Assembly: GCA_964358895.1 (NCBI GenBank)
Contig: CAYHPR010000003.1
Span: 14,473 to 78,472 of the forward strand
Direction of reading: 5' to 3'
Origin: Candidatus Micrarchaeota archaeon
GTDB taxonomy: Archaea > Micrarchaeota > Micrarchaeia > CABMEP01
Length of the DNA: 64,000 bases
In this document: piece after piece, positions 14,339 to 40,019 of the stretch
Layout of the letters: each line of letters begins with the position of its first letter
Numbering within the stretch: the stretch's first letter is position 1
The notes under the pieces: generated by a model
Databases searched by the model: none
What the model was told of the DNA's origin: nothing
The model's input: the letters and a program-made list of their open reading frames with translations, nothing else
Position numbers and translations under genes: made by a program

Positions 14339-15844
14339 TTATTTGGAGTCTATTTGTGTATGAAAAGTTACTTCACCTGTTTTATACTTCTGTTCTAACC
14401 AACTATATACTGTTTGCAAGTAAAATAATTTAGGACCTTTAGTAATCATCAACGGAAAATAATGTTCTATCAAAGGAACGCCTAGGGGCTCTTTCCATTC
14501 TCTCAATTCCTGGTAATACTGTTCAGTTTTATAAATTGAGTTATAAATTGGCCAAGGCGTAAATTGGTGTGATGAAAACATTACGGCTGTTGACAAAAGG
14601 AGAGTAATTACTATCAATTGTGTGTTTTGTTTATTTAATATTACGGACAACGGTAATGCTAGAAAAGGAAGCGTAGGGATAAGGTATCTCAAGCCAAAAT
14701 AATCTCCATGCCAATGATCTATGCCGCCAATAACTATTAAGAATGTAACAAATATCCCTAGGATAATAAATGTTAAGTTAGGGTCAATTTTATAAAAATA
14801 AAAAAAGCCAAATAATGCAAAAATAAGGATCGGCGAATAAATAAAAAGACCCTTATATGGGAAAATTAACATCCTGGTCATAATATTAAATAAATCTGGA
14901 CTTGTATATCTTCGATCAAAGATATGTGCGCTTTTTTCTATGATCTGGCCAATTATTTGAACCGGAGGGTTATAATCAATACTATTTTTTTCTTCGCAAA
15001 CATAGCTATAGCAATGGTAAGAGTAAGAAAGTGCTAATGGATTATCAAACGTATCAAAGTTGTAAATTAACAAGGGTAACACGCCTACGAAAATTCCGAT
15101 CAAGAAAAAAGACCAACTATTTTTGAATTTCAAGATTATATATCCAATCAAAAAGAAAGCAACAATCAGCTGCAAGTAATCAACAAAAATTGAAAACCCA
15201 ATTAATCCTCCAGTAAAAAGTTGCAGACTTATCTTTCTTTTAATCTCTTCAAATCTTGTATAAATTAAATAAAAGGCAAAAAACGAAAAGAAAACACCAA
15301 CATTATGAACTAATCCTGTCGAAGCATAATAAAAGAAAGAAGTGCCAGCTCCTATACTTATTGCTGTCAGCACAGCTGCAGATTGTGAATTGGTTATTTT
15401 TTTTGCTATTCTAAAAATTAAAATTAAGGTTAATGCACTTAATGGTGCTACTATCAGTGCTACCACAAAGCTATGTAGTATGAATTTTTTAAGATATTTA
15501 TAATAATCAGGTTGCTCTGTTTTTATTTTTTCAAATGAATTTTTGTCAAACCATGGAAGAATTTGATCAGATTGGATTATGGCGTATAACGGTACGGCCA
15601 TAAACGAAAGTCCAGGTGCTTTATCAGAGTAATAATTTCCGTTGTAGTAGGATTTATCAACTGCATTCCAAATAAACGAATTGATAACAAATGTATTTTT
15701 TTCTACGACTCCTTGAGTTAAAGCGTAGATAGTTTGTTCTTCTACCAGACTGGTTGTAAAAATTACGTAAACTAACCAAAAAGAAAGAGATATCAGAAAT
15801 TCTAGTTTTTTATCGGGAAAATTTAATCGACGCATGACTATCAA
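14339..15844 (-). CDS. GT-C fold glycosyltransferase (PMT/ArnT-like, GT39/GT83-type)
   Basis: About 12 TM helices. First-loop motif YSDKAPGLSFMAVPLY resembles the DKPPL motif of ArnT/PMT enzymes. Confidence 0.55.
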   Translation of the reverse strand: MIVMRRLNFPDKKLEFLISLSFWLVYVIFTTSLVEEQTIYALTQGVVEKNTFVINSFIWNAVDKSYYNGNYYSDKAPGLSFMAVPLYAIIQSDQILPWFDKNSFEKIKTEQPDYYKYLKKFILHSFVVALIVAPLSALTLILIFRIAKKITNSQSAAVLTAISIGAGTSFFYYASTGLVHNVGVFFSFFAFYLIYTRFEEIKRKISLQLFTGGLIGFSIFVDYLQLIVAFFLIGYIILKFKNSWSFFLIGIFVGVLPLLIYNFDTFDNPLALSYSYHCYSYVCEEKNSIDYNPPVQIIGQIIEKSAHIFDRRYTSPDLFNIMTRMLIFPYKGLFIYSPILIFALFGFFYFYKIDPNLTFIILGIFVTFLIVIGGIDHWHGDYFGLRYLIPTLPFLALPLSVILNKQNTQLIVITLLLSTAVMFSSHQFTPWPIYNSIYKTEQYYQELREWKEPLGVPLIEHYFPLMITKGPKLFYLQTVYSWLEQKYKTGEVTFHTQIDSK

Positions 15845-16055
15845 ATTATTGATAATATCCTTGTATAAACGTATCTAACATGCTCTCAAATACGGTCGGC
15901 AAATCTATCCTATCTGTCACCTTCCTCCTTAATCTAATTGTATAAGTGCAGTATACGCTAGTTATATGCTGATATAATACTCAGGTACATTATAATGTTT
16001 ACGCAGTCTACTTTAGATATCTATTAATAAGTTATATTCTTCTTAATAATCTCAT

Positions 16056-17735
16056 ATGCGTTTTATTTTTTTTAAACATCTAAGTAAGATTAATATGACT
16101 ATACTGCTAAGTCTTTTTTTATTTATTTTTTTGATACTAGGCTTGATTGAGATAAACAGCCTATCTTTTACAGTTGATGAACCTGCACATATAATTTCAG
16201 GGTTTTTATATAATACTGAAAAAGATTTTAGTTTTGAAAAAACACACCCTCCTTTAATAAAATTAATGGCTACAGCTATTCCTGCCGTTTTATTAGATCT
16301 AAAACGATCAGATACTGGAGAATATAGCATATCCAGATTTTTCTTTTATAACGAAGAAAACTTCGAAGAGTTAGTTTTTTTTTCTAGAGCATTTATTTTG
16401 TTATTGTCTATCTCTCTTATTATTTTTATTTATAAATTTTCCTCAGAACTTTCTAATTCTAAAATTGGGCTTTTTGCAGTATTTTTATATATCTTCGAAC
16501 CGACCATAATGGCTAATTCAACTTTAGTTACTACTGATTTCGGAGTAGTTATTTTTGTTTTTTTATCTATTTATTTTTTATATTACTTCAAAAAAAACTT
16601 ACATAAATGTGTCTCCTGGAAATTTTTATTCGCGTCATTTTTTTCGGTCGGACTTGCTATTACATCGAAATTTTCTGGGTTGCTGGTTATGCCTATCTGG
16701 TTAGTATTATTTTTTTATAAAAACAATTTAAGTCTATATAAAAAATTTTTTATTATTTTCATTTTTTTATTTACAATTCTACTCACTATTAATTTTTTAT
16801 ATTCTTTTGATCGAGATTATAAATTTGCATATGACTGTAATGAAAATAAAAGCAATTGCCTTATAATATTTAATACTCCTGTTTTTGTTCCATTACCTGA
16901 AAAATTTGTAGAAGGTTTAAATTTAGTCAGAATCCATGCTCAAACTGGACATCCAGCATATCTATTTGGTGAGTATTCAGAAAAAGGTTGGTGGTATTAC
17001 TATCCGATTGCCTTTTTTATAAAAACACCAATTCCATTATTATTATTTATATTTTTTGGAGTTTTATTTATACTTAGAAGAAAGCGTCCCGTCTTTTTAT
17101 TTTTAGTTGTACCCATACTTTTATTTCTATTCTTTTTTATGTTTTTTAATAAAATTAATATTGGAATTAGACACATATTACCCATATACCCTTTTCTAGT
17201 TATTCTAGCAAGTCATTCATTCTATCTTATTAAAAATAAATATATTTTTTTCTTACTTTTAATCTGGTATTTTCTTGCTTTTATTTCTGTTTTTCCATTT
17301 AATTTAACTTATTTTAATGAATTAATAGGTGGGCCTATTAATGGGCCGAAAGCTTTACTTGATTCAAATATAGACTGGGGGCAGGACCTTAAATTCACAA
17401 GAGATTACATAAATAATAATCAAATAAAAGAGTTCTATTACGGACGAGCTATTGAAGAAAATAGTATCTACCCTTTTTTACTATATATTGATTCTAATAA
17501 AATAATCAATAAGCCATTCTGTTATCAAAAGAAGATTGGAACCTATATAGTTAATGTTAACACACTATATGCGTTGTATGGTGTAGGTCCTGATGCAAAC
17601 TATTCTCACCAGACTAAAATTCCCCCCGATTTAACTATCTATCGTCCACCTGAAGACTGTTATATCTGGCTTCGCAATGAGACTCCAATTCATATTATAG
17701 GGAATTCGGTCTATGTATATAATTTAACCGAATAA
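16056..17735 (+). CDS. GT-C fold glycosyltransferase (PMT/ArnT-like)
   Basis: Motifs FTVDEPAHIISGF and KTHPPLIKLM match the DE...HPPL signature of GT39/ArnT. Many TM helices. An alternative start is the ATG at 16095. Confidence 0.6.
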   Translation: MRFIFFKHLSKINMTILLSLFLFIFLILGLIEINSLSFTVDEPAHIISGFLYNTEKDFSFEKTHPPLIKLMATAIPAVLLDLKRSDTGEYSISRFFFYNEENFEELVFFSRAFILLLSISLIIFIYKFSSELSNSKIGLFAVFLYIFEPTIMANSTLVTTDFGVVIFVFLSIYFLYYFKKNLHKCVSWKFLFASFFSVGLAITSKFSGLLVMPIWLVLFFYKNNLSLYKKFFIIFIFLFTILLTINFLYSFDRDYKFAYDCNENKSNCLIIFNTPVFVPLPEKFVEGLNLVRIHAQTGHPAYLFGEYSEKGWWYYYPIAFFIKTPIPLLLFIFFGVLFILRRKRPVFLFLVVPILLFLFFFMFFNKINIGIRHILPIYPFLVILASHSFYLIKNKYIFFLLLIWYFLAFISVFPFNLTYFNELIGGPINGPKALLDSNIDWGQDLKFTRDYINNNQIKEFYYGRAIEENSIYPFLLYIDSNKIINKPFCYQKKIGTYIVNVNTLYALYGVGPDANYSHQTKIPPDLTIYRPPEDCYIWLRNETPIHIIGNSVYVYNLTE

Positions 17736-21591: not shown

Positions 21592-21614
21592 AATAATCTT
21601 GGAAAAGTTTTACA

Positions 21615-22859
21615 ATGAACATATTAAGGATAATGCTTAACGCCCCTCCTTTTAAAGGTGGTGCAGAAAATAGAATACACGAAATTAGCAAAGTTCTTGC
21701 TAAAAAACATAAAATAACTGTATTAACTGGGGGTATTCCGGAAGGAAAAGAAAAAGTAGTAGACGGTATCAGATATATTTATTTTGGGGATATGAATATT
21801 TTTACAGGTTTTAAAAACGATTCTCTATCTGAAATGATAAAATGGTTAATCGATGTAAGTAGATACATCTTTTTTAAAAATATTAATATAAAACGATTTG
21901 AAGGTACTTATCTAAGGGCTATGGCAGATTGGTTAAACAAAAATGGAAAAGATTACGACATTATAATAAATGAATTTACGCCTGGGGCAATACGGCCAAT
22001 TTCCAATTACCCTTATAGTCTTAATGTAATACACTTAAGATATTCTTTATTTGATACATTCGAAAAGTCAACTAAATTTGGATGGAAATTTAATTGGTTA
22101 GAAGTCCCGTATTATTATCTATTTCAGCAATTTCTTTTTTTAACAAATAAAAATTTTATAGTTTGTAAGACTGATGATGCAAATGCAATACACTTTCTAA
22201 ATAAAAATGCAAAAATTAAAGTTATTCATCCTGCGGCTGATCCCAGCTTAAGGAAAGCAAAGACCGAAGAAAAAAATTTTATCTTATATATGGGTAGAAT
22301 AGATAAATACCAAAAAGGATTAGATCTACTTTTAGAAGCATTTGCTGAATTAAACTGCAAAGAAAAACTTGTTGTTGCAGGAGATGGTTATGATTTACTA
22401 GAACTTAAAGAAAAAGTTAAAGACTTAGATATAAAAAACAGAGTAAAGTTTGTTGGTTGGGTTGCTGGGAACAGTAAGAGGAAACTATTAACTAAATGTA
22501 AATTTGTTGTTATGCCTTCTAGAATAGAAGGATTAAGCCTCACATCTTTGGAGGCAGCTTATTGTGGAAAAGCAATTTTAGGCACTAATGCAGTTGCACA
22601 TGGCCTTCCAAACGTGTATTTAATTGAGTTGAATAAACAGGATATCTATCGGGGTTTAATTACTCTACTTAATAACTCCAAATTAAGGAAGAAATTAGGA
22701 AATAAAGGTAGAAAAGCAGCGAATAAATTTTCGTGGGAGAGTTCAGCAGGATTAGAAGAAGATTCATATAATCAAATTTTTAATAATAACAAATTAAAGA
22801 GCGAGATAACTGGTTTCGATGAAAATCTTAAGAATATTTTTAAACGCCCCTCCTTTTAA
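21615..22859 (+). CDS. GT4 glycosyltransferase, tandem copy 1 with junction-encoded C-terminus
   Basis: EX7E-type motif SRIEGLSLTSLEAAYCGKAILG. The body is identical to the downstream copy. The last 31 aa are encoded by the duplication junction and overlap the start of copy 2. Confidence 0.65.
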   Translation: MNILRIMLNAPPFKGGAENRIHEISKVLAKKHKITVLTGGIPEGKEKVVDGIRYIYFGDMNIFTGFKNDSLSEMIKWLIDVSRYIFFKNINIKRFEGTYLRAMADWLNKNGKDYDIIINEFTPGAIRPISNYPYSLNVIHLRYSLFDTFEKSTKFGWKFNWLEVPYYYLFQQFLFLTNKNFIVCKTDDANAIHFLNKNAKIKVIHPAADPSLRKAKTEEKNFILYMGRIDKYQKGLDLLLEAFAELNCKEKLVVAGDGYDLLELKEKVKDLDIKNRVKFVGWVAGNSKRKLLTKCKFVVMPSRIEGLSLTSLEAAYCGKAILGTNAVAHGLPNVYLIELNKQDIYRGLITLLNNSKLRKKLGNKGRKAANKFSWESSAGLEEDSYNQIFNNNKLKSEITGFDENLKNIFKRPSF

Positions 22860-23963
22860 AGGTGGTGCAGAAAATAGAATACACGAAATTAGCAAAGTTC
22901 TTGCTAAAAAACATAAAATAACTGTATTAACTGGGGGTATTCCGGAAGGAAAAGAAAAAGTAGTAGACGGTATCAGATATATTTATTTTGGGGATATGAA
23001 TATTTTTACAGGTTTTAAAAACGATTCTCTATCTGAAATGATAAAATGGTTAATCGATGTAAGTAGATACATCTTTTTTAAAAATATTAATATAAAACGA
23101 TTTGAAGGTACTTATCTAAGGGCTATGGCAGATTGGTTAAACAAAAATGGAAAAGATTACGACATTATAATAAATGAATTTACGCCTGGGGCAATACGGC
23201 CAATTTCCAATTACCCTTATAGTCTTAATGTAATACACTTAAGATATTCTTTATTTGATACATTCGAAAAGTCAACTAAATTTGGATGGAAATTTAATTG
23301 GTTAGAAGTCCCGTATTATTATCTATTTCAGCAATTTCTTTTTTTAACAAATAAAAATTTTATAGTTTGTAAGACTGATGATGCAAATGCAATACACTTT
23401 CTAAATAAAAATGCAAAAATTAAAGTTATTCATCCTGCGGCTGATCCCAGCTTAAGGAAAGCAAAGACCGAAGAAAAAAATTTTATCTTATATATGGGTA
23501 GAATAGATAAATACCAAAAAGGATTAGATCTACTTTTAGAAGCATTTGCTGAATTAAACTGCAAAGAAAAACTTGTTGTTGCAGGAGATGGTTATGATTT
23601 ACTAGAACTTAAAGAAAAAGTTAAAGACTTAGATATAAAAAACAGAGTAAAGTTTGTTGGTTGGGTTGCTGGGAACAGTAAGAGGAAACTATTAACTAAA
23701 TGTAAATTTGTTGTTATGCCTTCTAGAATAGAAGGATTAAGCCTCACATCTTTGGAGGCAGCTTATTGTGGAAAAGCAATTTTAGGCACTAATGCAGTTG
23801 CACATGGCCTTCCAAACGTGTATTTAATTGAGTTGAATAAACAGGATATCTATCGGGGTTTAATTACTCTACTTAATAACTCCAAATTAAGGAAGAAATT
23901 AGGAAATAAAGGTAGAAAAGCAGCGAATAAATTTTCGTGGGAGAGTTCAGCAGGATTAGAAGA
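21639..23963 (+). repeat. tandem direct duplication of two 1121-bp units (period 1204 bp, 83-bp junction) of a GT4 gene
   Basis: Every position I compared matches between the copies: 21657 with 22861, 21721 with 22925, 22621 with 23825 and 22751 with 23955. Divergence occurs only in the first 25 nt (MNILRIM against MKILRIF) and after ggattagaaga. Confidence 0.8.
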
Positions 23964-23991
23964 GGTCTATTATGCCGCATTACGCAAATGA
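22819..23991 (+). CDS. GT4 glycosyltransferase, tandem copy 2 with native C-terminus
   Basis: Same protein as 21615-22859 over about 373 aa. Ends EVYYAALRK. Confidence 0.7.
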   Translation: MKILRIFLNAPPFKGGAENRIHEISKVLAKKHKITVLTGGIPEGKEKVVDGIRYIYFGDMNIFTGFKNDSLSEMIKWLIDVSRYIFFKNINIKRFEGTYLRAMADWLNKNGKDYDIIINEFTPGAIRPISNYPYSLNVIHLRYSLFDTFEKSTKFGWKFNWLEVPYYYLFQQFLFLTNKNFIVCKTDDANAIHFLNKNAKIKVIHPAADPSLRKAKTEEKNFILYMGRIDKYQKGLDLLLEAFAELNCKEKLVVAGDGYDLLELKEKVKDLDIKNRVKFVGWVAGNSKRKLLTKCKFVVMPSRIEGLSLTSLEAAYCGKAILGTNAVAHGLPNVYLIELNKQDIYRGLITLLNNSKLRKKLGNKGRKAANKFSWESSAGLEEVYYAALRK

Positions 23992-23994
23992 ATT

Positions 23995-27163: not shown

Positions 27164-27937
27164 GTGAGGATAATGGTCGATATCAATAAATATTTGGACG
27201 CATTGATTGAATTAGTCTTAGCCGAGTTTAAATTGGTATACCATAAGTCTATCCTCGGGCTCCTTTGGGCGTTCCTTAGTCCGCTATTAACTATGTTAAC
27301 TTTTTTTGTTATATTCTCTTTTTTTATTAATCTTGATATATTGAACTATCCGTTTTTTTTATTGCTTGGAATTCTAACTTGGAATTTTTTCAATAGTTCA
27401 ACTACTGCATGTGTTAATGCATTGGAACTGCGAAAAAGTTTGATTAAAAGCATTAATTTTCCAAGAGAGTTAATTATATTTAGTATTATAATAACCTTTA
27501 TTTTATCTTTGATATTTTATATATTAATATTCTTTGTATTAATGTTATTATTCAACCTGAATGTAGAACTAATTACGCTCATCCAATTTCCTTTGTTGGT
27601 AATTCCTTTAATCATATTCGCAACGGGTATTTCTTTAGCGTTGTCAGTTTTACAAACAAAGTTTAGAGATATTCAATACATATGGGGGTTTATATCTGGT
27701 TTGTTGTTTTTTATTACTCCCGTATTCTATTCTGTCTCAATGGTTCCCAATTGGTTAATGCCCTTATATTTATTAAATCCTTTAGCTGTAATAATAACTG
27801 AGTTACGAAATATAACTCTATTTGAAGCAAATATAAATCTGAGTAGTTTATTTTTAGTTTATGTCATAGTTTTAGTTACTTTATTTCTTGGCCATATCAT
27901 ATTTAAGAAGATTGAACCATCATTGGGTGAAGAATGA
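27164..27937 (+). CDS. ABC-2 type polysaccharide/O-antigen export permease (Wzm/TagG-like)
   Basis: Six TM helices and a size of about 257 aa. Immediately upstream of and overlapping a Wzt-like ATPase, the typical Wzm-Wzt arrangement. Confidence 0.65.
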   Translation: MRIMVDINKYLDALIELVLAEFKLVYHKSILGLLWAFLSPLLTMLTFFVIFSFFINLDILNYPFFLLLGILTWNFFNSSTTACVNALELRKSLIKSINFPRELIIFSIIITFILSLIFYILIFFVLMLLFNLNVELITLIQFPLLVIPLIIFATGISLALSVLQTKFRDIQYIWGFISGLLFFITPVFYSVSMVPNWLMPLYLLNPLAVIITELRNITLFEANINLSSLFLVYVIVLVTLFLGHIIFKKIEPSLGEE

Positions 27938-28662
27938 TCGAAATAAAAAATTTAAATAAAATATTTAAAGTGCCACATGAACGAAGAAAAACGTTATTTG
28001 AAACATTAGTAGGTGGAGTTAAAAGAGATTATGAACTAATCTATGCGTTGAAAGATATTAATCTACGTATATCTAGCGGTGAAGCGATAGGAATCATCGG
28101 TCCAAATGGATCTGGAAAAAGTACGTTATTAAGAATTATTTCTGGGATATACAAATCAACAAATGGGTCAATAAGTGTAAACGGTTCCGTGACACCTATC
28201 TTAGATCTAGGTGCAGGTTTACAGGATGATCTTAGCGGTAAGGAGAACATATATCTATATAGCACTCTTCTCGGTGTTCGTAGAAAGGAAATTGAAGAAA
28301 AGTTCGAGCACATAGTAGAATTTTCGGATATTAAAAAGTTTATCGACACTAGGGTGGAATATTACTCATACGGCATGAGGGCACGGCTTGCATTTTCTAT
28401 AGTTGCAAGTATTAATACAGATATACTTGTAAGCGATGAAATATATGCGGTTGGTGATATAAACTTTCAGCAAAAATGTCATAAAATGTTTAAAGAATTA
28501 AAAGAAAACGGTAAAACACTTATACTTGTATCTCATTCAACTTCAGATATACAAAATCTCTGTGATCGAGTGGTTCTTTTAGAGAATGGTCGGATTACTA
28601 TGGTAGATAAGCCAAAAAAAGTTATCAATTATTATACTAACAAATATCTAGTCAAAAAATAA
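27934..28662 (+). CDS. ABC transporter ATP-binding protein (Wzt/TagH-like)
   Basis: Walker A GIIGPNGSGKSTLL. The signature region is LSGKENIYLYSTLLG. Walker B ILVSDEIYAVGD. Confidence 0.8.
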   Translation: MIEIKNLNKIFKVPHERRKTLFETLVGGVKRDYELIYALKDINLRISSGEAIGIIGPNGSGKSTLLRIISGIYKSTNGSISVNGSVTPILDLGAGLQDDLSGKENIYLYSTLLGVRRKEIEEKFEHIVEFSDIKKFIDTRVEYYSYGMRARLAFSIVASINTDILVSDEIYAVGDINFQQKCHKMFKELKENGKTLILVSHSTSDIQNLCDRVVLLENGRITMVDKPKKVINYYTNKYLVKK

Positions 28663-29742: not shown

Positions 29743-31035
29743 TTGGTAAATAAATTATTACATAATAACTTTAAAAAGTTTAAGAAAATATTTATTGAAC
29801 CTAGTGGTAATTTTATATTTTTATTTTTTGTAGCATTACTACTCTTTCTTACTATAAAAATAAGTTGTGCAGGTTTAAATGCAGATGAATATTCTTATTA
29901 TAATTTACTTAGATCTCTAATTGATTACGGAGATCTTACTCACCTTCCTAGTGAACTTTCCAGATTTATTTATCTGGCACAGCCCGGATATCCTATATTT
30001 ACTTACCCGATTTATTTACTAACTAATGAAGTTTATACTGTTTTTAACATATCTCTCAAGGAGATTGATAAAGATATTTGGCCAATAAATTACACTTTAG
30101 AACAGTTATACGATAAAGAAAAATTTTATGACAGTACGAACAAATTATTAGACGGTCGCCTCATAGTTAGTTTGTATGTGGTAAGTATACTCTTTTTTCT
30201 AATAGGTTTATATTTTCTTAGTCGAACTCTTCAGAATAAACTATTATTATTCTTATTTTTCTCAAGCCCAGGTCTTGTCGCACATTTTTTATATAATTTT
30301 ACTTATCCAACTTTTGTAGTTATAGGTTTAAATTCTTTGATAGTATTCTTATGGGTAAACAGCGCTAATAAAAACAACTATTTTTTACTTGGATTTATTC
30401 AAGGTCTTGCAGGCTTGGTAAGATATTCTACGTTAATCTTCTTACCTTTCTTTATTTTATTGCTCTTACAAGAAAAGAAAAAAAAGGAAGCATTGTTTTT
30501 AATTTTAGGATTTATCTGCGTTGCTTGGGTTTATTTATATATAAACTACGTATTTAGAGAAAATCCTATTGATTTAGGACAAAACTTTATTATTGAACGA
30601 TCAATAGTAAGCACAATTAATTCCGACCTATTAGAAAGTATAATTAAATTAACTAATCTTCAATATATTCTGGTTATTCCTGCGGGTTTCTTGTCCTTTT
30701 TCTATATTAAAAAAATGAACAGTAAATTTAAAATTTTAAAGCAGACTATGTTAGTTTATTTTTTAATTTTCTTTTTGATTTTAAGTGGATCTTATTATTA
30801 TTCTGCATTAAATCTTACATACGACACCAGTAGATATTTTAGTGAATTACTCCCAATAAGTTTATTATCGATCGATAAATTACCTACGCGCATACAGAGA
30901 TTAGTTTTGTTCGGAATACTTATCTTGACACCATTTAGTTATTTTTCATTTCCTTGGTTGGACAACGGCGGAAATAGTTGCATCTCATCTATTTTGGGAA
31001 ATTTAGGACATATGTTCGGATTAGTTCCTGAATAA
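29743..31035 (+). CDS. polytopic membrane protein, GT-C-like
   Basis: More than 10 TM helices. An acidic first loop (NADEYSYYNL) resembles the GT-C DE/DD motif. Confidence 0.4.
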   Translation: MVNKLLHNNFKKFKKIFIEPSGNFIFLFFVALLLFLTIKISCAGLNADEYSYYNLLRSLIDYGDLTHLPSELSRFIYLAQPGYPIFTYPIYLLTNEVYTVFNISLKEIDKDIWPINYTLEQLYDKEKFYDSTNKLLDGRLIVSLYVVSILFFLIGLYFLSRTLQNKLLLFLFFSSPGLVAHFLYNFTYPTFVVIGLNSLIVFLWVNSANKNNYFLLGFIQGLAGLVRYSTLIFLPFFILLLLQEKKKKEALFLILGFICVAWVYLYINYVFRENPIDLGQNFIIERSIVSTINSDLLESIIKLTNLQYILVIPAGFLSFFYIKKMNSKFKILKQTMLVYFLIFFLILSGSYYYSALNLTYDTSRYFSELLPISLLSIDKLPTRIQRLVLFGILILTPFSYFSFPWLDNGGNSCISSILGNLGHMFGLVPE

Positions 31036-31040
31036 TTTAT

Positions 31041-32561: not shown

Positions 32562-32596
32562 AATTTATTTATCATATGCTATGTTTTAAACATAGT

Positions 32597-35266: not shown

Positions 35267-35278
35267 TTTATCTTGCTC

Positions 35279-35968
35279 TCATTTTTTATTAACACGAAAT
35301 ATTAATAGTTTTAAGAAAGTTTCAACCATGGCAATTAAGCTAAGTTTTGAGCCTGATTTTTCTTTCCAAATTATTGGGATAGAGGTTATGGTATAACCTT
35401 TATTCTTTGCTTTCCAAAGAATCTCTGCATCAAAACCCCAGCGTTCATTTTTTAAATTTTTAAATAACTCTCCTGCAATCTTTCTTTTAAAACCTTTTAT
35501 TCCAACTGCAACGTCATAATCAATCTCAAATAATATTTTGCTATACGCTCTATATATCTTACTAAGTTCCATTCTTAAAAACGATCGTTCCGTTTTCGAA
35601 TCTTTATGCATTCTATCTCCCAAAACTAAATCAAACGCAATAAGGCGACTTATCACGTTTTTGATTATTTCGGGGGAAATCGCGCCATCGGCATCTATAA
35701 AAATAATATTCTTTCCACTACTTAATTCTATCCCGGTTTTTATAGCGGCACCTTTGCCTTTATTTTTTTTATAATTATATAACTGTATATCTCGTTCTTT
35801 TTTTATAATTGATTTTATAATTATTTCAGTCCTATCCGTCGATCCATCATTAATTATTAAAATTTCCTTATCCTTTATTCCTTTTACAAATTTAATAAGT
35901 TTTATTAAAAATGGTTTTATTCTTTTTTCTTCATTATAAGCTGGTACGATTATAGTTAAGTTTTTCAT
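35279..35968 (-). CDS. dolichyl-phosphate glycosyltransferase (DPM1/AglD-like GT2)
   Basis: LTIIVPAYNEEKRI, IINDGSTDRT, GKGAAIKTG, FIDADGA, and a C-terminal FDAEILWKA typical of DPM synthase-like enzymes. Confidence 0.75.
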   Translation of the reverse strand: MKNLTIIVPAYNEEKRIKPFLIKLIKFVKGIKDKEILIINDGSTDRTEIIIKSIIKKERDIQLYNYKKNKGKGAAIKTGIELSSGKNIIFIDADGAISPEIIKNVISRLIAFDLVLGDRMHKDSKTERSFLRMELSKIYRAYSKILFEIDYDVAVGIKGFKRKIAGELFKNLKNERWGFDAEILWKAKNKGYTITSIPIIWKEKSGSKLSLIAMVETFLKLLIFRVNKK

Positions 35969-36054
35969 TTGTCACATTTAAGTGTTCATCTTTATCTATT
36001 TAACTAAGTACTTAATGGACATAGCCATAGACATAGAAACCTTTTTAAGTCTCA

Positions 36055-36312
36055 TTGAATTGTTATAACATGGCAAAAAAGACCAAGAGGGCGACAAAAA
36101 TGGCGAAAAAAGATTCAAGTCAACGAAACCAAGCAATCGGTATACTTATCTTAGCACTTATTGTGGCAGCTTTATTTGTGATTGTGGCAACAATTCCTCA
36201 GAGAACAACTCCGCAGACCGGAGCAGTTATCACAGGTGGTCAAGTTCAGCCACAAGTTACAAACGTATCTAAGCCATTGACAACGCTGCGCGTTGTTTAT
36301 ACTAAGTCGTAG
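36055..36312 (+). CDS. small single-pass membrane protein
   Basis: 85-aa ORF with a basic N-terminus and one TM helix (GILILALIVAALFVIVATI). Confidence 0.3.
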   Translation: MNCYNMAKKTKRATKMAKKDSSQRNQAIGILILALIVAALFVIVATIPQRTTPQTGAVITGGQVQPQVTNVSKPLTTLRVVYTKS

Positions 36313-36393
36313 AATTAGTTTTTAGAATTAGATTTTCGTTCTAGCTATCAGATCAACTTAAATATTATTTCTTTTCTTATTCTATTCTCAGGT

Positions 36394-38442
36394 ATGTTTA
36401 TGAAAGTTCCTAGGCTCCCTTATCCATTCATAGTAATATCTATTCTAGAATTATTCACACTGTTTGCTTATATAATCCCTTTTGTAGAAAAAAATAACCT
36501 TTACATCTGGGACATGGTCGGTCATTATTATTTGGCAGATTATTACAAAACAACTCTTTGGCCTCGTTTTGTAGGTTGGAACCCGCATTTTTTTGGAGGC
36601 TTTCCGCAAGGACAGTTCTATCCTCCATTATTCCATTGGTTAGTCGGAGGGATTGGTCAATTGACGGGTACATTCTGGGCATTTAAGCTGCTGACAGTTA
36701 TCGGGTTGCTTCTACCACCGTTCGCATTTCTTTATTTTGTTAGAAAACTCGGATTCAACGACAAAGAATCGGCACTTGCTGTGCTTTTCATGTTTCTTCC
36801 AATGATTTACGGATTTCATGGTGGCGGGTTCGAATCCACATTTAACATAGGTTTAGTAACTCAAGGTTTTTCTATTTCAATTTTATTTTTTTATTTAGGT
36901 GCTTTTATAAGTTCGTTAAGAAATAAGCGTTTCATATCATCAAGTATCTTTTTCGTATTGTTAGCACTCTCTCATTTTTACAGTACTTTTGCTGGAATCG
37001 TAGCAGCATTTGTAATTCTGTCGACCTTTTCTTTTACACAAACGCAGTTTGCTAAAGACTATTTTATTACGAGTTTTAAACATGCCTGCTTATCTTTAGC
37101 CCTTTTGAGTTTTTGGTTAATTCCGTTCATAGTTAATCTTCCATTCATTTCATCTTCTTATATCTCTGGTGAATTGCAGCCAATCTCCTCTGTAACGTTT
37201 TTTCTTTTATTGATCTCAATAATTGTCATAGCCAAAAATCAAGATAACCGGGCGTTTCTTGCGTTAGTCATTGCATTAGTCTTTCTTTTGTTATACGTTT
37301 TAGAATCAGTATTGACTAAATATCTGCCAATACAGTTGTATAGATTTTCTCTTTATCCGAGTATTTTTATTTCCGTTCCAGTGGGTATCTTGGCAGTTTA
37401 TCTAACGGGCAAAACGATTTCAAAATATTTTGGTCCATTTATAGAAAAAATAAAAATTTCAATAAATGAAGAAAAAATTTATCCATACCTGTCTGTTTTT
37501 TTTGTAGGCTTAACATTGTTTTTACTCTTTTCCGTACGTATATTTAATGTAGCAAATCCAGTCGGAACATTTGACATGAAACTCAATCTTCCTCTCGAGT
37601 TCGATTTTAGTTCAGGAAGAGTTCTAACAAATCCAATACAAAGCGATACAGGAGGACTTAATCCGATGTATCATATCGCTTCGCATCAAGTTGCATGGAA
37701 CGGAGCTGAGGAAGTCGGGGGACTTTTTGTTGAATCGACTCCGAATGCGGGTTACATTCAGCATATTAAACGTGAAATTGATCCAAGAGCGGCTAGCTGG
37801 GGCATCCCTACCTCATATATAACTGAAAATAAAGATGTTCTTTTGCCTTATCATGCAAAATATCTCGGAATCAGCTATATTTTGACAAATATAGACCCTA
37901 CATACTTCGAATCAATTTTTGGTAGATTATATTACTGGTATATAGATACGAATTCCGTATTCGGCATCTATAGATTAATTCATATCGCAGATAACAATGT
38001 GTTCGAAGTTCTTGATTATCAACCTGTCAAAGTTAATGGAGATTGGAGAGATGAGCAATTTGGTTGGTTCTTCGATGATCAAAGAATATCGAAGTTGATA
38101 ACTCCAGACGATGTCCCTTCAGTTGTAGGATCAAAAAATGTCACCGTTACGGTTTTGAGAAAAGAACCAGAACGAATAGAGTTGTTCATTAATTCTATGT
38201 CTCTTGTCCCAATTCATATTAAGATTCCCTATTATTCAAATTGGAATGCATACGTAAACGGCGTTAAGACGCAGATATATAAAGTTCCAGTAAATATGAT
38301 GCTTGTTTATGGAAGCGGAGTGGTTGAATTACGTTATGAACCAACTGCTTCAGATTATCTAGGTATGTTTATTAGTGCAATAGCAATTAGTTATTTGGCC
38401 TACGGTGTTATATTTGAAAAGAAAAATAAAAAAATTAAATAA
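36394..38442 (+). CDS. large polytopic membrane protein (GT-C/YfhO-like), 682 aa
   Basis: About 12 TM helices followed by a roughly 250-aa soluble C-terminal domain. No STT3 WWDYG motif. Confidence 0.4.
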   Translation: MFMKVPRLPYPFIVISILELFTLFAYIIPFVEKNNLYIWDMVGHYYLADYYKTTLWPRFVGWNPHFFGGFPQGQFYPPLFHWLVGGIGQLTGTFWAFKLLTVIGLLLPPFAFLYFVRKLGFNDKESALAVLFMFLPMIYGFHGGGFESTFNIGLVTQGFSISILFFYLGAFISSLRNKRFISSSIFFVLLALSHFYSTFAGIVAAFVILSTFSFTQTQFAKDYFITSFKHACLSLALLSFWLIPFIVNLPFISSSYISGELQPISSVTFFLLLISIIVIAKNQDNRAFLALVIALVFLLLYVLESVLTKYLPIQLYRFSLYPSIFISVPVGILAVYLTGKTISKYFGPFIEKIKISINEEKIYPYLSVFFVGLTLFLLFSVRIFNVANPVGTFDMKLNLPLEFDFSSGRVLTNPIQSDTGGLNPMYHIASHQVAWNGAEEVGGLFVESTPNAGYIQHIKREIDPRAASWGIPTSYITENKDVLLPYHAKYLGISYILTNIDPTYFESIFGRLYYWYIDTNSVFGIYRLIHIADNNVFEVLDYQPVKVNGDWRDEQFGWFFDDQRISKLITPDDVPSVVGSKNVTVTVLRKEPERIELFINSMSLVPIHIKIPYYSNWNAYVNGVKTQIYKVPVNMMLVYGSGVVELRYEPTASDYLGMFISAIAISYLAYGVIFEKKNKKIK

Positions 38443-39916
38443 TTTAAATAATTTAAATGTAGGGAGTTCTTTTAATCTCATAAATTTTTTGTTCAGTTTT
38501 TTTGATGCAAAAAAGATTGCATTTTTTTCATTTATCTTTTATTTTTTATTAATTCAGATTTATCCTTATAGGACATTTTTAGTGGGAGATGAAGTATTCT
38601 ATTATGATCAAGCTATAAAATTGCGCCAAGGTGTTATTGAAAACTTTCAAAATACTCAACCCTTCGCATATCCTGTATTTCTTGCAATAACTTTCATTTC
38701 TGATCTTACTATTCTTAGAATTATTAATTCAGCTATTGTATCTATCTCGGTCTACTTCCTATTTTTATATACTGAAAAGTTTTTCAGCAAAAAAACTGCA
38801 ACGTTATCTACCTTAATCTTTATAGTAAATCCTTGGACAGTTCAGATCGCTACGATATTATACACGGAATCTTTATTTCTTCTTTTTCTAATCCTCTCCT
38901 TCATCTTATATGAAAAATTTAAAGAAAAAAACGAGATCAAAATTTCGTTGTTGCTCGGATTATTTTTAGGACTTGCAATTGAAACTAGAATCGTAGGTAT
39001 CTTTTTACCCGCATTCTTCTTAATAAGATCTATTTTTGATCGGCGATTAACTAAATTTTTGCCAGCACTGGTTTTATCAATTTTAATTTTCTTACCGTAT
39101 CAAATACTAACTTCCGGAAAATTTATTCAAGAAAAAGTATACTGGACAGGATTTGACAGATACTTGTTCTCTTCCGCATTAGTAGAACTTTTTACAATTC
39201 CATTTGCTGAAAATCTACTTTTAGGTCCAGCAGTTATATCTATCGGAGTTTTTATGTTCGGTTTAGTCATTTTTTATGGAAGTTACTACCTATTTTATAA
39301 AAAATCAGATATAGTGTTTTTTATAATTTTGTTCACTACTGCGTTCACATTTACATCGAATTACCTATGGGGCAGATATTTTCTTCCACTGCTGCCCTTT
39401 TTTAGTATAGCAATCGTTTACGGTTACGAATTATCTAAAAAACTGAAAGAAAAGATTATCGAATACGGTTATTTGTTCTTCTTTATAATCTACTTTTCTA
39501 CTTCATTTATCGATGCGACAGGTGTATTATTCGGTTTCGAGAGGCCAATATTTTTATCATTTAATCGTTTTTATACAGTTCCTCCTTCAGGTTGTATGTT
39601 ATTAGATAAAGACTGGACGTTATATCACGGAGATATAAATTCAACAATTAATCTACCAAAATTTGATCAGTATGGAAATGCAGACTATCTAAAATCTGTT
39701 AGTATAAATGATTCTTATTCAAAGATTGTTGTATCAAACGGTGACGACGGTTATGAACTTTTTATCAATGATAATTTCATAGATAAAACACAAGATTCAG
39801 TTTTTAAGCCACATACAACTTACTATCAATTAAATCCCGGGGAGTATAACTTCAGATTTTTTGTATATAACCGTTACAATATAGGCGGGATAGGACAAGT
39901 GATGTTATGCAAGTGA
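38405..39916 (+). CDS. polytopic membrane protein, GT-C-like
   Basis: Acidic first loop (VGDEVFYYDQ). More than 10 TM helices. C-terminal soluble domain. Confidence 0.4.
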   Translation: MLYLKRKIKKLNNLNNLNVGSSFNLINFLFSFFDAKKIAFFSFIFYFLLIQIYPYRTFLVGDEVFYYDQAIKLRQGVIENFQNTQPFAYPVFLAITFISDLTILRIINSAIVSISVYFLFLYTEKFFSKKTATLSTLIFIVNPWTVQIATILYTESLFLLFLILSFILYEKFKEKNEIKISLLLGLFLGLAIETRIVGIFLPAFFLIRSIFDRRLTKFLPALVLSILIFLPYQILTSGKFIQEKVYWTGFDRYLFSSALVELFTIPFAENLLLGPAVISIGVFMFGLVIFYGSYYLFYKKSDIVFFIILFTTAFTFTSNYLWGRYFLPLLPFFSIAIVYGYELSKKLKEKIIEYGYLFFFIIYFSTSFIDATGVLFGFERPIFLSFNRFYTVPPSGCMLLDKDWTLYHGDINSTINLPKFDQYGNADYLKSVSINDSYSKIVVSNGDDGYELFINDNFIDKTQDSVFKPHTTYYQLNPGEYNFRFFVYNRYNIGGIGQVMLCK

Positions 39917-39920
39917 GTTT

Positions 39921-40019
39921 ATGAAAATGAAAAATAAAACTCAAATCAAAATTTCTATTGTTGTTCCAGCACACGACGGTCAAAGTTTTTTAGGAATAAC
40001 CGATTGTACGTGTTTATAA
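39921..40019 (+). pseudogene. truncated N-terminal remnant of a GT2 glycosyltransferase
   Basis: 32-codon ORF MKMKNKTQIKISIVVPAHDGQSF... carries the GT2 Rossmann start motif (compare VSIIVPAHNEE in the intact GT2 at 41024) and then stops. Confidence 0.5.

Follow-up and report, generated by a model that had tools for sequence, protein, structure and literature searches.

A low-GC block of surface-glycan enzymes, rich in GT-C candidates, in a probable groundwater Micrarchaeota archaeon

The classical role of PMT-type GT-C enzymes is protein O-mannosylation, and the broad PMT_2 family also holds lipid- and glycan-modifying enzymes (ArnT-like). AT-rich, locus-specific evolution is common in O-antigen, capsule and agl clusters. 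Three-component extracytoplasmic glycosylation coupled to ABC-dependent glycans has already been described (PMC11127046). The locus considered here lies in a 64,000-nucleotide window (the whole stretch of DNA analysed) from a DPANN-type archaeon, probably of the Micrarchaeota, in Hainich groundwater. The source is a low-coverage metagenome of the Hainich H52 sample, with contig names giving cov_3 to cov_5, and no species-level relative was found among 185,579 GTDB representative genomes. A low-GC block consisting almost wholly of surface-glycan enzymes is set amid archaeal housekeeping genes, with L15e and RNase P p30 to its left and proteasome alpha, SBDS and exosome subunits to its right (Table 1). 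On balance, we lean towards reading the whole as a horizontally acquired cell-surface glycosylation island of ~25.7 kb that follows a 'build inside, export, decorate outside' logic.

Composition and borders of the block

Two-breakpoint least-squares segmentation of GC content in 100-bp bins places the block at 14301-40000, essentially where the first-pass annotation had seen a sharp drop (14.3-40.0 kb), and explains 34% of the GC variance, against at most 4% in 200 permutations. GC content is 29.8% across 14339-40019, whereas the left flank has 37.4% and the right flank 38.3%; per gene it is 26.6-34.9% for the 19 island genes and 31.9-43.1% for flank genes (Mann-Whitney p=4e-9). The shift affects all codon positions (GC1 36 vs 48%, GC2 29 vs 35%, GC3 24 vs 31%) and the encoded proteins, in which the combined share of F, Y, N, K and I rises from 29 to 41%, in line with the enrichment already noticed. 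Tetranucleotide signatures normalised for composition are likewise non-uniform, correlating at r=0.39 between island and flanks and at r=0.875 between the two flanks. GC content is graded within the island, at about 28.5% in the ~14.3/16-33 kb core and 32.7% at 32.8-40.0 kb, so the 26-28% first proposed suits only the 16-33 kb core; core genes of up to ~60% were an overestimate, the per-gene maximum in the window being 43% and the richest 300-bp window, at 11951, 54%. Protein family does not account for the shift, since the paralogous GT2 genes 35279 and 41024 (35% identity) have 28% GC (GC1 34%) and 38% GC (GC1 50%) respectively.

Both borders are sharp, each lying no more than about 100 bp from a gene end. 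Neither is marked by an integrase, a tRNA or an att-like repeat. The left-most island gene is 14339 (31.4% GC). The right border carries the truncated GT2 remnant that the annotation had reported: a GT2 N-terminal motif has four matches in six frames of the window, namely three real GT2 starts and 39921, where 0.03 would be expected by chance. This genuine GT2 5' stub occupies the place where a GT2 starts in a related Micrarchaeota MAG (L004), with the GC breakpoint at 40000, and probably represents a recombination scar. An NTase/HEPN-like pair of toxin-antitoxin type separates the island from the core GT2 41024; the pair has flank GC and is missing from the equivalent position in L004.

Table 1. 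Features of the island and its neighbourhood (genes are cited in the text by first coordinate).
Feature	Coordinates	Strand	Basis or remark
PIN-domain (VapC-like) toxin gene	13132..13536	+	Pfam PIN E=2e-13; close to left island border
GT-C (PMT_2-type), 501 aa, about 10 TM	14339..15844	-	Pfam PMT_2 27.7 bits (cut-off 26.1)
GT-C (PMT/PMT_2-type), 559 aa, about 9 TM	16056..17735	+	Pfam PMT 39.1, PMT_2 33.9 bits, both above cut-off
GT4 (GT-B fold), cytoplasmic, 360 aa	17736..18818	-	Pfam Glycos_transf_1 E=4e-31, Glyco_transf_4
Secreted GH10-family glycoside hydrolase, 439 aa	19083..20402	+	Pfam Glyco_hydro_10 E=8e-61
GT2, 310 aa, C-terminal hydrophobic segment	20659..21591	+	Pfam Glycos_transf_2 E=4e-25
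GT4, tandem copy A	21615..22859	+	Pfam Glycos_transf_1 E=6e-27
GT4, tandem copy B	22819..23991	+	
GT4, 380 aa	23995..25137	-	Pfam Glycos_transf_1 E=2e-43
GT2, 315 aa	25121..26068	-	Pfam Glycos_transf_2 E=1e-22
GT2, 330 aa	26062..27054	-	Pfam Glycos_transf_2 E=3e-32
Wzm-type ABC-2 permease, 257 aa	27164..27937	+	Pfam ABC2_membrane E=1e-16
Wzt-type ABC ATPase, 242 aa	27934..28662	+	Pfam ABC_tran
GT2, 301 aa	28738..29643	+	Pfam Glycos_transf_2 E=1e-27
Near-orphan polytopic membrane protein, 430 aa	29743..31035	+	hhalign to island PMT_2 proteins
GT-C (PMT_2-type), 506 aa	31041..32561	-	Pfam PMT_2 E=6.5e-14, 52.9 bits
Secreted/anchored GH15-like glycoside hydrolase, 889 aa	32597..35266	-	Pfam Glyco_hydro_15 29.4 bits (cut-off 22)
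Short soluble GT2, Dpm1/AglJ/PpgS-like, 229 aa, 28% GC	35279..35968	-	Pfam Glycos_transf_2 E=5e-29
Small unannotated ORF, 80 aa, basic N-terminus and one TM, 42.8% GC	36070..36312	+	Read from sequence
Predicted GT-C-fold enzyme, YfhO/PTPS_related kind, 682 aa	36394..38442	+	AF2 and Foldseek
GT-C (PMT_2/PMT-type), 503 aa	38405..39916	+	Pfam PMT_2 41 bits, PMT 29.9 bits
GT2 remnant, 32 codons, 'KISIVVPAHDGQ'	39921..40019	+	Motif scan; marks right breakpoint of island
NTase (MNT-like, HTH and Polbeta) with small HEPN-like partner	40053..41023	+	Pfam Polbeta, NTP_transf_2
Core Dpm1/AglJ-like GT2, 233 aa, 38% GC	41024..41725	+	Pfam Glycos_transf_2 E=3e-36
Large surface protein, 1,258 aa	41851..45627	+	N-terminal TM or signal, C-terminal TM anchor
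Flippase-like membrane protein (MprF N-terminal/LPG_synthase_TM type)	46728..47714	+	Pfam LPG_synthase_TM E=4e-44

Enzymes of the island and its neighbours

Six polytopic proteins are GT-C candidates. Pfam assigns four of them and a predicted fold the fifth; the sixth is assigned by profile-profile comparison only. For each of the six, 7-10 TM segments are predicted, and the sequence shows an acidic motif following TM1 ('VDEP' in 16056). Pfam PMT_2/PMT thresholds are passed by 14339, 16056, 31041 and 38405; 14339 also has a sub-threshold NCBIfam match to the LA_3751/3752 putative GT family (E=3.7e-13) and 31041 a weak one to Agl23. The fifth candidate, 36394 (34.9% GC), has about nine TM segments, an external domain of 260 aa that is rich in beta structure, and a TM at the C-terminus. 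Its AlphaFold2 (AF2) model (pLDDT 84.9, pTM 0.88) predicts a GT-C fold, with GT-C enzymes throughout Foldseek PDB ranks 1-21; these include STT3/AglB/PglB (E~1e-5), AftA, ArnT, ALG12, DPY19, ALG9 and Pmt4, at TM-scores of about 0.4. Four of its 19 family members match PTPS_related and two match YfhO, and the sequence has neither a WWDxG motif nor a Pfam STT3 match. It overlaps by 38 nt with 38405, the final intact island gene. The sixth, 29743, has no Pfam match and otherwise weak sub-threshold ones only, and aligns with the island PMT_2 proteins in hhalign (95.9% probability, E=6e-9, 225 columns). Just three distant relatives were found among 1.84 billion representatives, one of them a PMT_2/PMT protein. 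In 29743, D48 and D64 after TM1 are invariant, and the confidence of its AF2 model (pLDDT 45) is too low for use. By its sequence it is probably a divergent GT-C. Against a crude background of 43 loci of at least 15 kb around homologous Dpm1-like GT2 genes, each with at most one detectable GT-C region, the GT-C number is unusual beside an ABC-exporter route, which supports the first impression of richness.

The cytoplasmic enzymes include four GT4 genes, as first counted, and five intact GT2 genes, the Dpm1-like 35279 among them rather than additional to six; the sixth intact GT2 gene, 41024, has normal GC and is located beyond the island. No GT2, GT4, Wzm or Wzt protein attains an NCBIfam equivalog cut-off. 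GT2 protein 20659 has paralogs in 28738 (37% identity), which weakly matches GlfT1 and a rhamnosyltransferase, and 25121 (36%). The sequence of 35279 makes it a candidate polyprenyl-phosphate-sugar synthase, its full-length sub-threshold NCBIfam matches being PpgS, dolichyl-phosphate hexose transferase, AglJ and ArnC. The best matches of 41024, also sub-threshold, are AglJ (E=7.5e-26) and dolichyl-phosphate hexose transferase; its ortholog in L004 is 63% identical, and, though outside the low-GC block, it is likely linked in function to the island GT-C enzymes. Among the GT4 genes, 17736 has Agl16 as its top, sub-threshold NCBIfam match, and the tandem pair is a perfect duplicate: 21639-22759 and 22843-23963 match at 100% identity with a period of 1204 nt, and the C-terminal tail of copy A runs across the junction into copy B. 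Two independent assemblies, L086 and L087, reproduce both the duplication and the 82-nt junction unique to it.

Pfam matches bear out the annotated exporter and two secreted glycosidases. The adjacent wzm and wzt genes overlap by 4 nt; Wzm has the galactan export permease Wzm/RfbD as its top NCBIfam match, and Wzt, a nucleotide-binding domain without the C-terminal carbohydrate-binding domain (short type), has galactan export Wzt/RfbE (E=1e-55) and TagH, all sub-threshold. The GH10 enzyme has an N-terminal hydrophobic signal-like segment, and its closest non-self relatives, at most 34% identical, come from degradative loci that also encode fucosidases and GH2, GH92 and GH95 enzymes, which would count towards a mosaic origin of the island. 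The GH15-like enzyme has an N-terminal hydrophobic segment and a sub-threshold NCBIfam match to 'oligosaccharide amylase' (E=8e-46).

Right of the island, 46728 exceeds the NCBIfam TIGR00374 'flippase-like domain' cut-off (102.9 against 43.2 bits) and is a candidate flippase for lipid-linked sugars, and 41851 is a candidate glycosylation substrate. The latter contains no N-x-S/T sequon, compared with 11 expected, and a homolog is sequon-enriched; this absence is perhaps of more interest than the island itself.

Origin of the block

Other copies are retrievable only on short contigs of the replicate H52 assemblies; these are at least 99.7% identical, and the differences are N-runs from scaffolding or a few SNPs. 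An artefact of assembly or binning that fused DNA of a different, ~28% GC organism to an archaeal contig would suit the abrupt composition change and the low coverage of the metagenome, but is scarcely credible. The left junction, including that between 14339 and 13580, is reproduced in the independent contig L002 (13497-16160, 99.8%; replicate assembly R2) and the right in L001 (38854-44023, 99.96%; R2) and L090 (37341-48076, 99.7%; R3). Together with L003, which covers Wzm, and L086/L087, these contigs cross the two junctions and the interior with no less than 99.7% identity; interior and flank contigs have similar coverage (3-5x), and a flank protein has a 100% identical copy on a 90-kb NCBI contig. 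As independent assemblies cross both junctions, the island is not a chimera and is physically continuous with the chromosome. Also improbable, if less so, is an old resident locus without horizontal acquisition, in which fast-evolving, weakly expressed surface-glycan genes became AT-rich under AT-biased mutation. The absence of integrase, tRNA and att repeats and the graded GC content are consistent with this, as is the lack of an identifiable donor; the nearest relatives of island genes are only 25-48% identical, so no donor lineage can be named. The 36394-38405-GT2 arrangement is also common to distant relatives: the overlapping pair recurs in L085 (46% and 41% identity), and in L004 a 38405-like gene, with conserved C-terminus, directly adjoins the 41024-like GT2. 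Since the right-hand 3.5 kb recurs in this way, a portion of the island is not random cargo but a conserved module, and its presence on the low-GC contigs L004 (29.7%) and L091 (31.8%) means that some of the signal could be a gene-family trait rather than a signature of transfer. However, the pair has 36.6% GC in L085, which shows that these genes are not inherently low in GC, and in L084, another Hainich archaeon, a 36394-like gene lies beside EF-1alpha and S10 without a GT block. The tetranucleotide signature far from both flanks, the sharp borders, with a GT2 stub near an intact ortholog of normal GC, and the 12-percentage-point movement of GC1 and amino-acid usage, which needs long evolution at low GC, all argue further against residence. 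The glycosylation-island reading survives for a foreign block of surface-glycan enzymes, with its right-hand end qualified as a conserved module. We infer that ~14.3-33 kb evolved for long in a lower-GC genome before horizontal acquisition as a mosaic; 36.4-39.9 kb is a GT-C pair kept as a module in distant relatives.

Proposed pathway and comparison with known systems

In the favoured reading of an export-and-decorate island, four GT2 and four GT4 Leloir enzymes would build a glycan on a polyprenyl or dolichyl carrier at the cytoplasmic face, and the short-type Wzm/Wzt transporter would export it. The Dpm1/AglJ-like 35279 and 41024 would produce dolichyl-phosphate-monosaccharide donors, which may be flipped by 46728 and then used by the six extracytoplasmic GT-C enzymes to extend or branch the exported glycan; these enzymes could alternatively, or in addition, attach O-linked sugars to surface proteins, 41851 for example. 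Trimming or release of the product would fall to the two secreted hydrolases, GH10 and GH15-like. Substrates, donors and step order are all proposals. The pathway as seen here is incomplete because no initiating phosphoglycosyltransferase (WecA/AglH or WbaP type), nucleotide-sugar synthesis gene, GtrA-/MATE-type flippase or AglB turned up in the island or the window. It is possible, though rather unlikely, that the locus serves mainly protein glycosylation and not a polysaccharide pathway, the GT-C enzymes modifying surface proteins, above all 41851, from dolichyl-phosphate or dolichyl-pyrophosphate donors, with the GT2 and GT4 enzymes making a lipid-linked oligosaccharide that Wzm/Wzt flips. 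Four GT-C proteins do match O-mannosyltransferase families (PMT/PMT_2), but PMT_2 extends to ArnT-like modifiers of lipids and glycans; the top structural neighbours of 36394 are oligosaccharyltransferases, but at the low TM-scores and without the STT3 hallmarks noted above. In L084 a 41851-like gene directly follows the 36394-like GT-C, the composition of 41851 (19% Ser/Thr, sequon-free) is compatible with O- rather than N-linked decoration, and the best match of 41024, AglJ, is an S-layer glycoprotein glycosylation enzyme. Conversely, eight cytoplasmic glycosyltransferases with a galactan/teichoic-acid-like ABC-2 exporter suit a polymer better, and two secreted glycosidases are commoner in polysaccharide loci.

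A polymeric glycocalyx is a reasonable inference, though the acceptor need not be a polymer given the classical role of PMT-type GT-C enzymes, which may equally glycosylate proteins here. The 25.7-kb region is a well-equipped case of an already known type of genomic island and not a new type of system; its proposed 'export-then-decorate' logic is the same as that of mycobacterial arabinogalactan and of the bacterial three-component systems.

Composition, continuity and source population of the island

Unbiased two-breakpoint segmentation of GC content delimits a low-GC block at 14301-40000 and explains 34% of the variance (R2 0.34), compared with at most 4% across 200 permutations. This agrees with the low-GC surface-glycan island that the first-pass annotation had placed at 14339-40019, and the windowed GC and tetranucleotide analyses proposed there as a check found a non-uniform composition. 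GC content is 29.8% for 14339-40019, compared with 37.4% in the left flank and 38.3% in the right, and each of the 19 intact island genes lies between 26.6 and 34.9%. The 26-28% originally given for the island fits individual genes and the 16-33 kb core (28.5%) but not the whole block, and the core genes of about 60% GC that it was set against do not occur, the window maximum being 54% in a single 300-bp window. Finer segmentation separates 14.6-32.8 kb (28.6% GC) from 32.8-40.0 kb (32.7% GC). The drop affects every codon position (GC1 36 vs 48%, GC2 29 vs 35% and GC3 24 vs 31%, island vs flank) and extends to the encoded proteins, in which the combined share of F, Y, N, K and I rises from 29% of residues in the flanks to 41%, in line with the enrichment described earlier. 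With base composition normalised, tetranucleotide usage correlates at r=0.39 between island and flanks, compared with 0.875 between the two flanks and 0.71 between the island halves. Protein family does not account for the shift: two homologous short GT2 genes differ by location (28% GC for 35279 in the island, 38% for 41024 in the core; genes are named by their start coordinate), and the polytopic membrane proteins of the flanks, 13580 and 46728, have a GC content of 38-41%. A deviating signature and sharp borders, both expected of a horizontally acquired genomic island, are present. No tRNA or tmRNA was found across the window, no integrase or transposase domain among island proteins, no repeat of at least 13 nt common to the two border zones and no structured RNA at the island borders. 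Promoter and terminator scanning relied on a sigma-70 consensus from bacteria, which carries no information for an archaeal genome.

A chimeric or misassembled origin of the block is ruled out, as two replicate assemblies supply contigs that cross each border and cover interior stretches (see table); coverage, taken from contig names, is 3-5x and equal inside and outside the island. The replicate assemblies derive from the 0.2 um fraction of well H52 of the Hainich groundwater observatory (ENA ERZ1292621 and ERZ1292622, reached by exact-protein look-ups). Copies from this well differ by N-runs and a handful of SNPs, and the shorter gene calls in two of the contigs, L087 and L090, proved to be caused by scaffold N-runs rather than strain variation. 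An identical copy (100%) of the flank protein 41851 is present on a 90-kb NCBI contig. The Hainich virome paper contains nothing specific to the island.

Features of the island and its flanks, with same-population contigs that cover them (window positions)
Feature	Position	Remarks
Ribosomal protein L15e and RNase P p30-like gene	1-2 kb	Left flank, housekeeping
PIN-domain gene	13132-13536	Near left border
GT4 genes (n=4)	17736, 21615, 22819, 23995	Gene starts
Intact GT2 genes inside block (n=5)	20659, 25121, 26062, 28738, 35279	Gene starts; 35279 short, Dpm1-like
Wzm (ABC2_membrane)	27164-27937	Flanked by GT2 genes
Wzt (ABC_tran)	27934-28662	4-nt overlap with Wzm; short type, without carbohydrate-binding domain
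GT2 remnant	39921-40019	32 codons (MKMKNKTQIKISIVVPAHDGQS...); 4 nt past the 38405 stop
HTH-NTase and small HEPN-like partner	40053-41023	Right border; missing from the equivalent site in the Micrarchaeota MAG contig L004
Second NTase/HEPN pair	45763-46721	Downstream of 41851
Proteasome-alpha / SBDS / Rrp4 / Rrp41 / Rrp42 run	49-53 kb	Right flank, housekeeping
Thioredoxin reductase, myo-inositol-1-phosphate synthase, others	after 53 kb	Right flank
Same-population contig L002	13497-16160	99.8% identity to window
Same-population contig L086	20167-24359	99.98% identity to window
Same-population contig L087	22705-25556	Matches window
Same-population contig L003	27676-30979	99.8% identity to window
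Same-population contig L090	37341-48076	99.7% identity to window
Same-population contig L001	38854-44023	99.96% identity to window

No species-level syntenic relative was found among 185,579 GTDB representatives, metagenome contigs and homologs of 41851. A search of the GTDB representatives with the GT2 41024 returned a 'Candidatus Micrarchaeota' MAG as best match (63% identity, on a 3.1-kb contig), followed by CPR bacteria at ~45% identity. From these few genes, the host was taken to be of DPANN type and probably a micrarchaeote. The profile search of metagenome contigs gave one 6.9-kb contig with unrelated genes upstream, and the search with 41851 recovered solely itself and relatives at 29% identity. 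The sequences that could be retrieved were same-population replicates (at least 99.7% identity) and distant relatives (40-63% at the amino acid level) on short contigs.

The left flank also encodes two adjacent large proteins (3282-4994 and 5080-6756, both +) that have no Pfam match and share a near-identical C-terminal motif, …V(V/M)R(I/V)RVVGDSKLEA…, which suggests a paralogous pair. Further along, 10983-12755 (+) encodes a secreted-looking protein of 590 aa with 26% Ser/Thr, no Pfam match and 12 sequons against 10 expected; local GC is higher here than anywhere else in the window, at 43% for the gene and 54% for a 300-bp stretch at 11951.

Borders, duplication and history of the island

A regular-expression pattern for the N-terminal strand and PAxN motif of GT2 proteins bears out the truncated GT2 gene that the first-pass annotation had placed at the end of the island. 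Scanned over all six frames across the window, it matched at four places, namely three genuine GT2 starts and the ORF at 39921-40019, with 0.03 matches expected by chance. In L004, a Micrarchaeota MAG contig, a 38405-like gene overlaps a 41024-like GT2, and the remnant sits exactly where that GT2 starts. The two genes are directly joined in L004, whereas in the window the interval between 38405 and 41024 holds the stub and an NTase/HEPN-like pair of flank GC, and the GC breakpoint coincides with the end of the stub. The stub, the arrangement in L004 and the position of the breakpoint together show that the right border is a scar left by rearrangement within the 5' end of a GT2 gene, and a clean example of recombination at an island edge. 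Either incoming low-GC DNA ended at this point, or a toxin-antitoxin cassette was inserted here together with a second copy of a GT2 gene. Toxin-antitoxin-type genes bracket both the island and the surface-protein gene 41851.

Part of the block is shared with distant relatives. The 36394/38405 pair, with overlapping reading frames, is also present in the distant-relative contig L085 (46% and 41% identity; contig GC 36.6%). Upstream of the 36394-like genes, the neighbours vary from relative to relative, being EF-1alpha and S10 in another Hainich archaeon (L084) and unrelated ORFs in L085 and in a further distant-relative contig, L091. As the neighbours differ in every case, the left 22 kb of glycosyltransferase genes lie outside the conserved module, at this phylogenetic distance. 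Relatives of the island GH10 (19083) reach at most 34% identity and sit in loci for degradation, among numerous fucosidases and GH2, GH92 and GH95 enzymes, which points to a mosaic origin of the island; the GH10 may have been recruited from a catabolic context. No donor lineage can be named, given that the closest relatives of GH10, 36394 and 29743 are at 34%, 46% and 25% identity. In six CPR loci (L006, L028, L043, L049, L051 and L054), a Dpm1-like GT2 homolog is situated at ~10.0 kb, followed by GT4 genes at ~13.6-14.6 kb and a 14339-like GT-C at ~18.4-20.3 kb; this spacing indicates that the GT2-GT4-GT-C cluster recurs in ultra-small bacteria as well.

Within the island, a 1121-nt stretch is repeated without a mismatch in the neighbouring GT4 genes 21615 and 22819 (21639-22759 = 22843-23963, period 1204). 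The two copies have seven differences in their first 25 nt and unrelated 3' tails, and the reading frame of the first copy continues through a unique 82-nt junction into the second. An assembly artefact is ruled out, as the 1121-nt repeat and the 82-nt junction are also found in two independent assemblies (same-population contigs L086 and L087). The pattern suggests that a duplication, or gene conversion between the adjacent paralogs, took place very recently, and provides an example of how glycosyltransferase islands diversify.

GT-C enzymes, exporter and accompanying genes

The six GT-C candidates form three neighbouring pairs (14339/16056, 29743/31041 and 36394/38405), each protein having 7-10 hydrophobic segments and, by sequence reading, D/E motifs straight after TM1. 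The initial count of six GT-C proteins stands for four of them (14339, 16056, 31041 and 38405), which exceed the Pfam PMT_2 and/or PMT gathering score, and by predicted fold for 36394; 29743 is a probable candidate only, and neither of these last two has a curated GT-C family match above threshold. Six such genes in 25.7 kb compare with at most one detectable region in each of 43 loci (15 kb or longer) built around homologous GT2 genes, a crude and sensitivity-limited background. The density of GT-C genes is unusual, and so is their pairing with an ABC exporter in an archaeon.

Among the 19 sequences of the 36394 family, four match PTPS_related and two match YfhO, and 36394 itself has no family match. 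Asp is absent from the invariant and near-invariant columns of the family, and is the majority residue only in a consensus stretch, 'D..GHY'. An AlphaFold2 model built from the 19 sequences (pLDDT 84.9, pTM 0.88) was searched against the PDB with Foldseek, where ranks 1-21 were all GT-C structures (best E 1.7e-5, TM ~0.4), led by STT3/AglB/PglB (E ~1e-5) and followed by AftA, ArnT, ALG12, DPY19, ALG9 and Pmt4. An identity as AglB was rejected: the sequence has no WWD, and hence no WWDxG motif, and no Pfam or NCBIfam match to STT3 or AglB, so that only the GT-C fold is common. On its modelled fold, 36394 is a GT-C enzyme and not AglB. Immediately upstream of it, the largest intergenic gap of the island contains an unannotated ORF (36070-36312, +) of 80 aa with a Lys/Arg-rich N-terminus and one TM, which at 42.8% GC makes a local GC bump.

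The polytopic 430-aa protein 29743 (29743-31035, +) is among the most isolated sequences of the window and nearly an orphan. Three distant relatives (E 1e-4 or weaker) were retrieved from 1.84 billion cluster representatives, one of which is a PMT_2/PMT protein. Residues D48 and D64 are invariant, and a profile of 29743 with the two other relatives aligned to the island PMT_2 proteins by hhalign at 95.9% probability over 225 collinear columns. Its LA_3751/2 match is sub-threshold, sequence and profile searches of the PDB gave nothing meaningful, and an AF2 model from a four-sequence alignment was unusable (pLDDT 45). From these alignments, 29743 is a probable, though unproven, GT-C.

The soluble enzymes and the exporter largely follow the first-pass annotation, which had listed four GT4 genes, a Wzm/Wzt exporter and two secreted glycosidases, all of which were recovered; its six GT2 genes plus a separate DPM1-like gene reduce to five intact GT2 genes in the block, 35279 included. 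Overlapping ABC-2 permease and ATPase genes lie inside the glycosyltransferase locus, with no equivalog-level identity to a characterised exporter in NCBIfam: the sub-threshold best matches are to the mycobacterial galactan exporter subunits, at 63 bits for Wzm (cut-off 380) and 188 bits for Wzt (cut-off 400), and Wzt also matches TagH (174 bits vs cut-off 320). The short soluble GT2s 35279 and 41024 align over their full length to the PpgS, dolichyl-phosphate hexose transferase, AglJ and ArnC models, below every equivalog cut-off. Both predicted glycosidases pass their family thresholds and have a hydrophobic N-terminal segment, namely the GH10 19083 (Glyco_hydro_10, 206 bits) and the GH15-like 32597 (Glyco_hydro_15, 29.4 bits vs cut-off 22). 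Two loci with GH10 relatives at 34% identity (L088 and L089) are polysaccharide-degradation loci with alpha-L-fucosidases, GH2, GH32, GH92 and GH95. Sub-threshold best names among the locus genes include AglJ, Agl16, AglG and Agl23, and no pathway candidate reaches an equivalog threshold. Window ORFs of at least 100 aa include no WecA/AglH-type (Glycos_transf_4) or Bac_transf phosphoglycosyltransferase, which may be encoded elsewhere, and the window holds no nucleotide-sugar genes, GtrA or MATE flippase, or AglB. Nor does the island contain a flippase, its gaps being at most 425 nt with no small 4-TM ORF; the flippase-like 46728 (MprF-N type), above the NCBIfam TIGR00374 threshold, lies 7 kb outside it.

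A candidate pathway, its rival and known systems

These enzyme classes would most likely fit a route in which a glycan is built inside, exported and decorated outside. Leloir-type GT2 and GT4 enzymes would make a lipid-linked glycan in the cytoplasm, and Wzm/Wzt would carry it out. The Dpm1/AglJ/PpgS-like GT2s 35279 and 41024, the latter just outside the island, would produce dolichyl-phosphate sugars, which 46728 may flip; the six GT-C enzymes would then use the flipped sugars externally, on the exported glycan and/or on proteins, and the secreted hydrolases would finally trim the product or set it free. In the main functional rival, the GT-C enzymes act as protein glycosyltransferases. This reading is favoured by the membership of four of them in protein O-mannosyltransferase families, by the fold of 36394, which is closest to oligosaccharyltransferases, and by L084, in which a 41851-like gene directly follows a 36394-like gene. 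As with the GT39 PMTs and actinobacterial Pmt, a Dpm1-like candidate donor synthase and a Ser/Thr-rich surface protein are nearby. The island PMT-type proteins nevertheless differ from eukaryotic PMTs in having no MIR luminal domains, and the PMT_2 family covers non-protein acceptors too. For the build-export-decorate route, a compact, physically verified set of cytoplasmic glycosyltransferases, ABC exporter, candidate lipid-sugar synthases and six GT-C candidates predicts an archaeal 'export-then-decorate' pathway. DPANN archaea live attached to other cells, so that recognition of the host and escape from viruses probably depend on their surface glycans; we know of almost no experimental work on how these glycans are made.

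The most promising lead concerns the potential acceptor. The surface protein 41851 (41851-45627, +) comprises 1,258 aa, of which 19% are Ser or Thr and 61 residues are Asn, and has a hydrophobic segment at the N-terminus and a membrane anchor at the C-terminus. It contains no N-x-S/T sequon against 10.9 expected, and zero was reached in none of 2,000 shuffles. Its two N-P-[ST] sites are non-glycosylatable, N-x-[AG] and D-x-[ST], taken as controls, occur as often as expected, and the sequon counts of the other secreted proteins of the window are likewise as expected. P0034, a distant homolog of equal architecture (29% identity), has 24 sequons vs 5.7 expected. These counts suggest that N-glycosylation of the main surface protein has been selected against in this lineage. 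A sequon-free protein beside a locus rich in PMT-type enzymes makes a switch of glycosylation mode directly testable. It is improbable, though worth stating, that envelope glycosylation as a whole was re-tooled, with 41851 purged of sequons and an acquired GT-C, synthase and exporter set giving an O-linked and/or polymeric coat. If so, the archaeon would have its own equivalent of the mycobacterial 'export-then-decorate' envelope pathway, and would be a natural case of surface glycosylation switching between N-linked and GT-C-mediated modes, with viruses or host recognition as a possible source of the selective pressure on an episymbiont.

Low-GC surface-glycan islands are familiar in prokaryotic populations, for example in Salinibacter ruber and Alteromonas macleodii (PMC2800850, PMC3542563). 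Among DPANN, glycosyltransferase-bearing islands occur in 'Ca. Mancarchaeum' Mia14, a Micrarchaeota relative (PMC5498576), and lower-GC islands in nanohaloarchaea (PMC10266531). Metagenomic islands are defined by variability at the population level, and the first-pass annotation had likened the block to hypervariable glycosylation islands. The present island resembles such flexible glycosylation or metagenomic islands in its sub-genomic GC, dominance of surface glycosyltransferases, housekeeping surroundings, toxin-antitoxin genes at the edges, and internal paralogy and duplication. However, it has no mobility genes, its six GT-C candidates far exceed usual reports, and one portion of it is a conserved module also found in distant relatives. 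It extends an established pattern of low-GC glycosyltransferase islands in bacteria, archaea and DPANN, and opens no new one.

Three-component extracytoplasmic systems (GtrA/GtrB/GtrC, CsbB/GtcA/YfhO, ArnC/ArnT and PPPRS/MATE/GT136) include bacterial ones attached to ABC-dependent O antigens, which give a clear precedent for the logic of the route (PMC11127046). The island likewise places a Dpm1-like GT2 and GT-C proteins, one from a family with YfhO and PTPS_related matches, beside an ABC-dependent glycan locus. In contrast to those systems, it has no GtrA- or MATE-type flippase, its flippase-like candidate being external, and its six GT-C candidates share two candidate donor synthases, where those systems pair the components one to one. 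The AglB oligosaccharyltransferase, the AglJ/AglD dolichyl-phosphate-sugar synthases and soluble Agl glycosyltransferases make up the archaeal Agl N-glycosylation clusters. The island resembles them in the sub-threshold Agl names, the structural closeness of 36394 to STT3/AglB and the large surface protein adjoining, but 36394 lacks the STT3 Pfam match and WWDxG, the window lacks AglB and 41851 lacks N-x-S/T sites. In mycobacterial arabinogalactan and LAM synthesis, GlfT1/2 (GT2) build, Wzm/Wzt export and the GT-C enzymes Emb, Aft and PimE act with polyprenyl-phosphate sugars. A single locus here similarly combines GT2/GT4 enzymes, Wzm/Wzt, a PpgS/Dpm1-like candidate synthase and several GT-C candidates, with AftA among the structural neighbours of 36394 and galactan exporter subunits as the best matches of Wzm/Wzt. 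However, the host is archaeal, the carrier would be of the dolichol type, every match is below the equivalog threshold, and there are no Emb/Aft (Arabinose_trans) matches, galactofuranose or arabinose precursor genes, or peptidoglycan acceptor. On this comparison, the mycobacterial parallel is an analogy of logic, not membership.
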